Shown here: one piece after another, positions 17,481-17,654 of the stretch
Numbering within the stretch: position 1 is the stretch's first letter
How the letters are laid out: the number at the start of each line of letters is the position of its first letter
From: Escherichia coli
GTDB taxonomy: Bacteria > Pseudomonadota > Gammaproteobacteria > Enterobacterales > Enterobacteriaceae
Assembly: GCF_003334765.1 (NCBI RefSeq)
Contig: NZ_QOWT01000004.1
DNA length: 64,000 bases
Strand: one strand, 5' to 3'
Made by a program: the position numbers and the translations under genes
Notes under the pieces: generated by a model
Databases searched by the model: none
What the model was told of the DNA's origin: nothing
What the model saw: only the letters and a program-made list of their open reading frames with translations

Positions 17481-17654
17481 ATGGCAAACCATCGAGGCGG
17501 TTCCGGCAATTTTGCAGAAGACCGCGAAAGAGCATCAGAAGCAGGTAAAAAAGGTGGACAGCACAGCGGGGGTAATTTCAAGAATGACCCGCAGCGCGCA
17601 TCTGAAGCAGGTAAAAAAGGTGGTAAGAGCAGTCACGGCAAAAGCGACAACTAG
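17481..17654 (+). CDS. ymdF: Stress-induced KGG-repeat protein YmdF (57 aa)
   Basis: Frame from ATG 17481 (SD gaggt upstream) gives MANHRGGSGNFAEDRERASEAGKKGG...; two tandem KGG-motif repeats. Confidence 0.85.
   Translation: MANHRGGSGNFAEDRERASEAGKKGGQHSGGNFKNDPQRASEAGKKGGKSSHGKSDN

Follow-up and report, generated by a model that had tools for sequence, protein, structure and literature searches.

The window analysed here is a stretch of 64,000 nucleotides of Escherichia coli DNA, in which ymdF lies between wrbA and rutG, divergent from wrbA (Table 1). The open reading frame extends from an ATG at 17481-17483 to a TAG at 17652-17654, exactly where a first-pass annotation of the bare sequence had placed a gene for a 57-residue protein, and its translation is MANHRGGSGNFAEDRERASEAGKKGGQHSGGNFKNDPQRASEAGKKGGKSSHGKSDN. 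The 851 nt around the gene, which take in ymdF and the ends of wrbA and rutG, are 100% identical to E. coli chromosomes, in which the genes at this place are wrbA, ymdF and rutG. The name ymdF given in the first pass agrees with RefSeq, which annotates the identical DNA as ymdF and names the product "general stress protein", with "con-10 family general stress protein" used in newer records. The protein is the E. coli YmdF already on record (UniProt P56614; RefSeq WP_001273658.1), at the same position and with the same neighbours (agp, yccJ, wrbA / ymdF / rutG), with no difference between the two. ymdF is a core, monocistronic gene of E. coli; published accounts cover the gene and its family as well as how it is regulated and several of its phenotypes, and nothing in the window departs from that picture.

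Table 1 Features of the ymdF locus, in coordinates of the window
Feature	Position	Strand	Evidence
wrbA-ymdF divergent intergenic region, 372 nt, several conserved blocks	17109..17480	.	Four-genus alignment
Conserved block ATGCAaTATGATGtCTA, candidate core promoter	17444..17460	+	15/17 positions invariant in four genera; directly 5' of the Shine-Dalgarno sequence
Shine-Dalgarno GGAGG, 6 nt before the ymdF ATG	17470..17474	+	Read from the sequence
ymdF coding sequence, 57 codons and stop	17481..17654	+	Open reading frame and translation; identical DNA annotated in RefSeq
KGG repeat 1, residues 10-30 (KGG at 24-26)	17508..17570	+	Pfam PF10685, i-Evalue 7.5e-9, model 1-22 of 22
KGG repeat 2, residues 32-52 (KGG at 46-48)	17574..17636	+	Pfam PF10685, i-Evalue 4.3e-9, model 1-22 of 22
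REP/BIME-type palindromic elements in the ymdF-rutG gap, presumed ymdF 3' UTR	~17760..17860	.	Rfam, inverted repeats, fold
Terminator-like GC hairpin with T-run	17883..17912	+	Consensus scan; fold -15.7 kcal/mol, z -3.4

At the start of the gene, the sequence GGAGGT is invariant in an alignment of four genera, represented by E. coli, Salmonella, Klebsiella and Enterobacter. A second in-frame ATG, at 17451, lies ten codons further 5' and has no Shine-Dalgarno sequence. Intact YmdF from E. coli colonies has been measured by top-down mass spectrometry at 5748.73 Da, with the initiator methionine removed (PMC5594050). Calculated from the open reading frame without methionine, the monoisotopic mass of 5748.7335 Da deviates by -0.6 ppm from the published value, and the product of the upstream ATG would weigh 7093 Da; the start codon is thereby fixed at 17481. 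The same agreement in mass argues against modifications of YmdF.

Upstream of the Shine-Dalgarno sequence, the conserved 17-nt block holds two candidate -10 elements or parts of them, TATGAT at 17450-17455 and the σS-like CTATAC at 17458-17463, and its role as a promoter is putative, being suggested by the alignment; the start of transcription would be predicted to lie downstream of it, at about 17462-17471. The sequence just upstream of this block cannot be aligned across the four genera. Further from ymdF, the intergenic region contains a block, TTTGATTTATAACAA at 17209-17223, that is invariant across the four genera, as well as conserved blocks resembling TGTTGCAGGATATTAC and TTCACTAAGCTTA further along. 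The region between wrbA and ymdF matches no Rfam family and holds no annotated gene, and its blocks are probably promoter and regulator sites (CsgD, σS) serving the two divergent genes. In Klebsiella, the region carries an extra insertion of ~78 nt. The upstream regions of ymdF and of its paralogue yciG do not align with each other, and no shared promoter was extracted from them.

On the other side of the gene, the hairpin at about 17882-17903 is followed by TTTCTGTTT. This likely terminator is the probable 3' end of the ymdF transcript, an assignment based on the strand of its T-run. The first GC hairpin 3' of ymdF, at 17708-17729, has no T-run. The two hairpins are related, with 5' arms CACCGCCGGTTACCC and CACCGCCGGTAACCC placed 174 nt apart, and they bracket the REP cluster; one possibility is a terminator present in duplicate on either side of an REP block that was inserted. 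The REP/BIME stretch is predicted to fold at -39.9 kcal/mol (z -4.7) and is matched in Rfam by ES036 (38.5 bits, gathering threshold 37.6) and, below its gathering threshold, by naRNA4 (40.4 bits). Because of this stretch, the 851-nt query finds ~25 matching places (median) in an E. coli genome.

Repeat architecture, composition and predicted structure

The two KGG-motif repeats described in the first pass are each matched over the full length of the Pfam PF10685 profile. Their KGG cores lie 22 residues apart and in the register of the family (F…D-[PR]-x-R-A-S-E-A-G-[RK]-K-G-G). The internal duplication proposed along with them is equally evident: both strings quoted for it occur in the protein (residues 15-33 and 37-53), and the 22-residue units GNFAEDRERASEAGKKGGQHSG and GNFKNDPQRASEAGKKGGKSSH are identical at 15 of 22 positions, far beyond chance. 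Among 5000 composition-preserving shuffles of YmdF, the best self-match averages 5.1 identities and reaches 10 at most, with 0/5000 at 15. In the DNA, the duplication appears as two 62-nt copies (17505-17566 and 17571-17632) that are 71% identical and spaced by 66 nt, or 22 codons; their differences are concentrated at third codon positions (9 of 18). In NCBIfam, no family is found at E ≤ 10 for YmdF, for YciG or for two distant homologues, so the RefSeq name of ymdF must rest on another kind of evidence.

The complete chain of 57 residues has an average mass of 5.88 kDa (5.7 kDa without the methionine) and a pI of 9.9. It is strongly hydrophilic, with a Kyte-Doolittle GRAVY of -1.71; glycine accounts for 12 of the 57 residues (21%), and the hydrophobic set ILVMFWYC for only three, M1, F11 and F33. 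The net charge is ~+4 at pH 7 and rises to ~+8.7 at pH 4.5. Among the marks of hydrophilins, in the criteria of Garay-Arroyo et al. 2000 as quoted in PMC3983491, are glycine above 6% and a hydrophilicity index above 1, and YmdF has both. A further mark, protection of enzymes in vitro against water loss, is reported for the paralogue YciG.

A search of the PDB with YmdF returns no relative at E ≤ 10. AlphaFold2, given an alignment of 16 sequences, models the protein with a mean pLDDT of 57.5 and a pTM of 0.25, no residue reaching 70. One low-confidence helix appears in each repeat, at residues 15-24 (RERASEAGKK) and 37-46 (PQRASEAGKK). From this model, YmdF is predicted to have no stable tertiary fold and to be disordered. 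The Salmonella orthologues are reported to be unstructured in solution by circular dichroism (Oguri 2019, as cited in PMC7161692). An amphipathic helix with a role in membrane binding was considered for YmdF and is not supported, the maximum hydrophobic moment of 0.64 being reached in 11% of shuffles.

The Pfam description of the KGG family mentions a Walker A motif after the KGG motif, which raises the question of whether YmdF binds nucleotides through a P-loop. The pattern [AG]x4GK[ST] occurs twice in the protein, as AGKKGGKS at residues 43-50 and GKSSHGKS at residues 48-55 (window 17607-17645), although PMC9262955 states that only YciG, and not YmdF, has a Walker A motif. The same pattern, however, arises in 5% of composition-preserving shuffles of YmdF. 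The Klebsiella and Enterobacter orthologues contain neither match (GGKNSHG), and the C-terminal one is missing in Salmonella too. The matches lie in the disordered tail, where no strand-loop-helix or alpha/beta fold is predicted; 57 residues cannot form a P-loop NTPase domain, and no P-loop family is among the Pfam matches of YmdF. With its frequency in shuffles, its lack of conservation among orthologues and the missing fold, the pattern looks like a by-product of composition, and nucleotide binding by this route is very improbable.

Conservation and relatives

Of 5426 complete E. coli genomes, 5417 contain a 221-nt segment across the coding sequence, nearly all of them as a single copy. A more sensitive search adds yciG, at ~79% DNA identity, and brings the median to two places per genome. 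Seven matches to the ymdF segment in this collection lie on records classed as plasmids, and one strain keeps just half of the segment. The longer 851-nt segment is not contiguous in ~350 of the 5426 genomes; in NZ_CP085074.1 and NZ_CP116152.1, IS1 or IS26 insertions are located inside it (window 17100-17950).

Over the 49 codons that can be aligned, ymdF has a dN/dS of 0.03-0.06 against its Salmonella, Klebsiella and Enterobacter orthologues, at a dS of 0.4-1.3 and with synonymous sites close to saturation. By these ratios, the gene is under strong purifying selection. A chance or non-coding reading frame, with the repeat as a mere duplication of DNA, has nothing in its favour but the small size of the gene and is refuted by the conserved Shine-Dalgarno sequence, the dN/dS, the presence of the segment in 5417/5426 genomes and the intact mass of the protein, and its probability is next to nil.

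The order agp, yccJ, wrbA (-) / ymdF (+) is kept in Salmonella, Klebsiella and Enterobacter. What follows ymdF on its 3' side varies. In E. coli it is rutG directly; Klebsiella and Enterobacter have an inserted gene for an EamA-family transporter; and Salmonella has a TetR-family gene, with no rut genes seen at its ymdF locus. Downstream of ymdF, the Enterobacter locus also carries a pair formed by a TacA1-antitoxin-like gene and an acetyltransferase gene.

Beyond the enterobacterial orthologues, an exhaustive search of 1.84 billion cluster representatives retrieves 639 relatives at E ≤ 1e-3, of which 199 reach E ≤ 1e-10. The best 150 of the 639 are 51-204 residues long, some of them being frameshifted or over-extended gene calls, and contain one to seven [KRQ]GG motifs spaced mostly by 22 or 19 residues. 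The 318 repeat units of these 150 proteins give the consensus F-A-N-D-P-E-R-A-S-E-A-G-R-K-G-G-Q-x-S-G-G-N, in which F, D, A, E, A, G, K, G, G and S are conserved at 75-100%; both units of YmdF agree with it. Around three distant KGG genes, no conserved partner is seen, the genes being monocistronic and lying on short contigs or beside unrelated neighbours such as chemoreceptors. Within the 64-kb window, tblastn finds no second KGG gene.

The closest comparison is with YciG of E. coli and Salmonella, a paralogue with two KGG repeats that is 91% identical to YmdF over the first 43 residues, although synonymous sites are saturated between the two genes. The C-terminal tail of YciG (…GGQQSGGNKSGKS) differs from that of YmdF, and yciG is the first gene of yciGFE beside trpA, whereas ymdF is monocistronic. 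A further Salmonella protein, STM14_1829 / SEN1538, is a KGG paralogue of YmdF and is grouped with YciG as RpoS-dependent and disordered.

Bacillus subtilis GsiB and Neurospora con-10 belong by name to the same KGG-repeat family (PF10685), as in the con-10 label that RefSeq now gives to ymdF. GsiB is induced by starvation or general stress. Both proteins differ from YmdF in having more repeats, in belonging to other taxa and in answering to other regulators (σB in Bacillus). Plant group 1 LEA proteins (Em) resemble YmdF in being small, glycine-rich, highly hydrophilic, disordered and built from repeats, with a GRKGG core, and their homology to the GsiB repeats is said to have been proposed by Stacy & Aalen in 1998 (a reference listed in PMC2292704). 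LEA_5 gives no Pfam match to YmdF at E ≤ 10. An hhalign comparison with what we take to be the sequence of Arabidopsis Em6, which Pfam matches to LEA_5, aligns 13 columns around GRKGG at E 0.089. Kinship between YmdF and group 1 LEA proteins is thus not supported statistically by this comparison, and the functional analogy is unaffected.

Expression, regulation and phenotypes

The first-pass annotation had made its reading depend on the presence of a family assignment or of expression. PF10685 is assigned, and the protein has been detected both by mass spectrometry and on two-dimensional gels. In the latter, YmdF is a stationary-phase spot with a maximum at 10 h (PMC6904343). In Salmonella Enteritidis, ymdF is RpoS-dependent by qRT-PCR in a ΔrpoS strain, as are yciG and the third Salmonella paralogue (PMC7161692); for E. 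coli, RpoS dependence comes from studies cited in the same paper. RpoS dependence of the three is likewise reported from the Salmonella σS proteome (PMC5437024). Among other regulators, CsgD has both wrbA and ymdF listed as target genes (PMC10002515), and YmdF and YciG are among the OmpR targets common to Salmonella and E. coli (PMC6262077). As found here or in the cited papers, YmdF is made, accumulates in stationary phase and in biofilm, and is RpoS-dependent.

When cells are fractionated, YmdF comes down with Dps and StpA in the insoluble 'cell debris', and not in the crude-ribosome or soluble fraction (PMC6904343). For so hydrophilic a protein, this behaviour is a hint of attachment to some large structure. 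One reading of its role is that YmdF binds polyanions on the stationary-phase nucleoid, on ribosomes or RNA, or on the anionic membrane, and protects or compacts them like the small basic proteins of stationary phase. The charge, which roughly doubles between pH 7 and pH 4.5, favours such binding, and the company of Dps and StpA at the 10 h peak points weakly the same way. The fractionation is nevertheless a single indirect observation, in which YmdF stays out of the crude-ribosome fraction; the chain forms no significant amphipathic helix, and no known nucleic-acid-binding domain is matched in Pfam. Polyanion binding as the role of YmdF is on balance unlikely.

The description of YmdF in the first pass as a protein of unknown function holds for its molecular mechanism; in other respects it does not, phenotypes of ΔymdF strains having been published (PMC9262955; bioRxiv 10.64898/2026.04.09.717482). 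Biofilms of E. coli ΔymdF are thin and patchy, and the mutant has a ~100-fold greater susceptibility to H2O2 and is also more susceptible to tobramycin and ciprofloxacin (PMC9262955). In Salmonella, single deletions show no acid phenotype, and the ΔyciG ΔymdF double mutant grows modestly worse at pH 4.5 (bioRxiv 10.64898/2026.04.09.717482). An effect of the Salmonella proteins on motility has been described (Oguri 2019, as cited in PMC7161692) that does not hold reproducibly from strain to strain. Overexpression of YmdF raises or lowers persister levels according to the antibiotic used (bioRxiv 10.1101/310961).

The small KGG-family protein PA2146 of Pseudomonas aeruginosa is strongly induced in biofilms, and it and E. 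coli ymdF can each take over the function of the other (PMC9262955). Its regulation differs from that of ymdF, in that PA2146 is placed downstream of SagS. In the same study, ymdF, its Klebsiella paralogues and PA2146 replace one another across species and restore the phenotypes of ΔsagS (PMC9262955).

Possible modes of action of the KGG repeats

On the grounds of its composition, its predicted disorder, the assay of YciG and its regulation, YmdF is most plausibly a disordered hydrophilin protectant of LEA-like type, acting in stoichiometric amounts and in redundancy with YciG, a reading to which we give about an even chance. The assay in question concerns the paralogue and not YmdF itself: YciG fits the hydrophilin definition and, according to the account of Reyes 2005 in PMC3983491, protected LDH on drying when supplied at a 1:1 molar ratio. 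In the mechanism envisaged, each repeat would form a nascent helix (D-x-[EQ]-R-A-S-E-A-G-K-K), terminated by a flexible KGG-x-x-S-G-G linker. Under falling water activity or pH, this positively charged and disordered chain would associate with macromolecular surfaces or coat them, and could in that way limit inactivation and aggregation, a task that would be shared redundantly with YciG. Loss of YmdF would then lead to a weaker biofilm architecture and to lower peroxide and antibiotic tolerance.

Against a protectant of this kind stand the Salmonella data, with the single ymdF deletion lacking an acid phenotype and motility being inconsistent between strains, and the study of PA2146, which could not link that homologue to any stress apart from biofilm growth (PMC9262955). 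The link to group 1 LEA proteins is without statistical support, and the predicted helices are not significantly amphipathic. Most directly, the near-invariant F, A, E, A, G, K, G and G of the repeat exceed what a shield depending on composition alone would need. With its sequence conserved beyond this need, YmdF may instead recognize a specific partner or a polyanionic target, and such recognition is a serious rival to protection.

The partner version of this rival takes YmdF as a motif-specific regulator, in which KGG is a short linear motif or fold-on-binding module for one partner and alters signalling or expression. The outputs proposed for it are biofilm formation, BrlR and c-di-GMP-linked tolerance in Pseudomonas, and PhoP and flhDC-linked motility in Salmonella. 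Evidence for it comes from a dN/dS that is very low given the disorder of the protein, from the 91% identity that YmdF and YciG have kept while the synonymous sites of their genes became saturated, from the near-invariant positions across the 318 units of the best 150 relatives, and from the exchange of ymdF, the Klebsiella paralogues and PA2146 in restoring ΔsagS phenotypes. No partner is known, however, and the distant homologues have no conserved operon partner; moreover, the range of one to seven repeats and the redundancy of paralogues fit a role in dosage or valency at least as well. Regulation of this type is possible, at odds that we put clearly below even.

Returning to the repeat itself, a related proposal can be put forward tentatively, in which each KGG repeat is no generic hydrophilic filler but a sequence-specific fold-on-binding module that docks on one conserved target, possibly within the stationary-phase nucleoid or envelope material with which YmdF pellets, with YmdF, YciG and PA2146 serving as valency-tuned regulators or stabilisers. 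If true, docking on one target would explain both a dN/dS of ~0.03 in a disordered protein and complementation across genera. KGG proteins are among the most strongly induced proteins of stationary phase and biofilm in enterobacteria and Pseudomonas and affect antibiotic tolerance, and the near-invariance of the repeat documented here argues that a partner is worth seeking.
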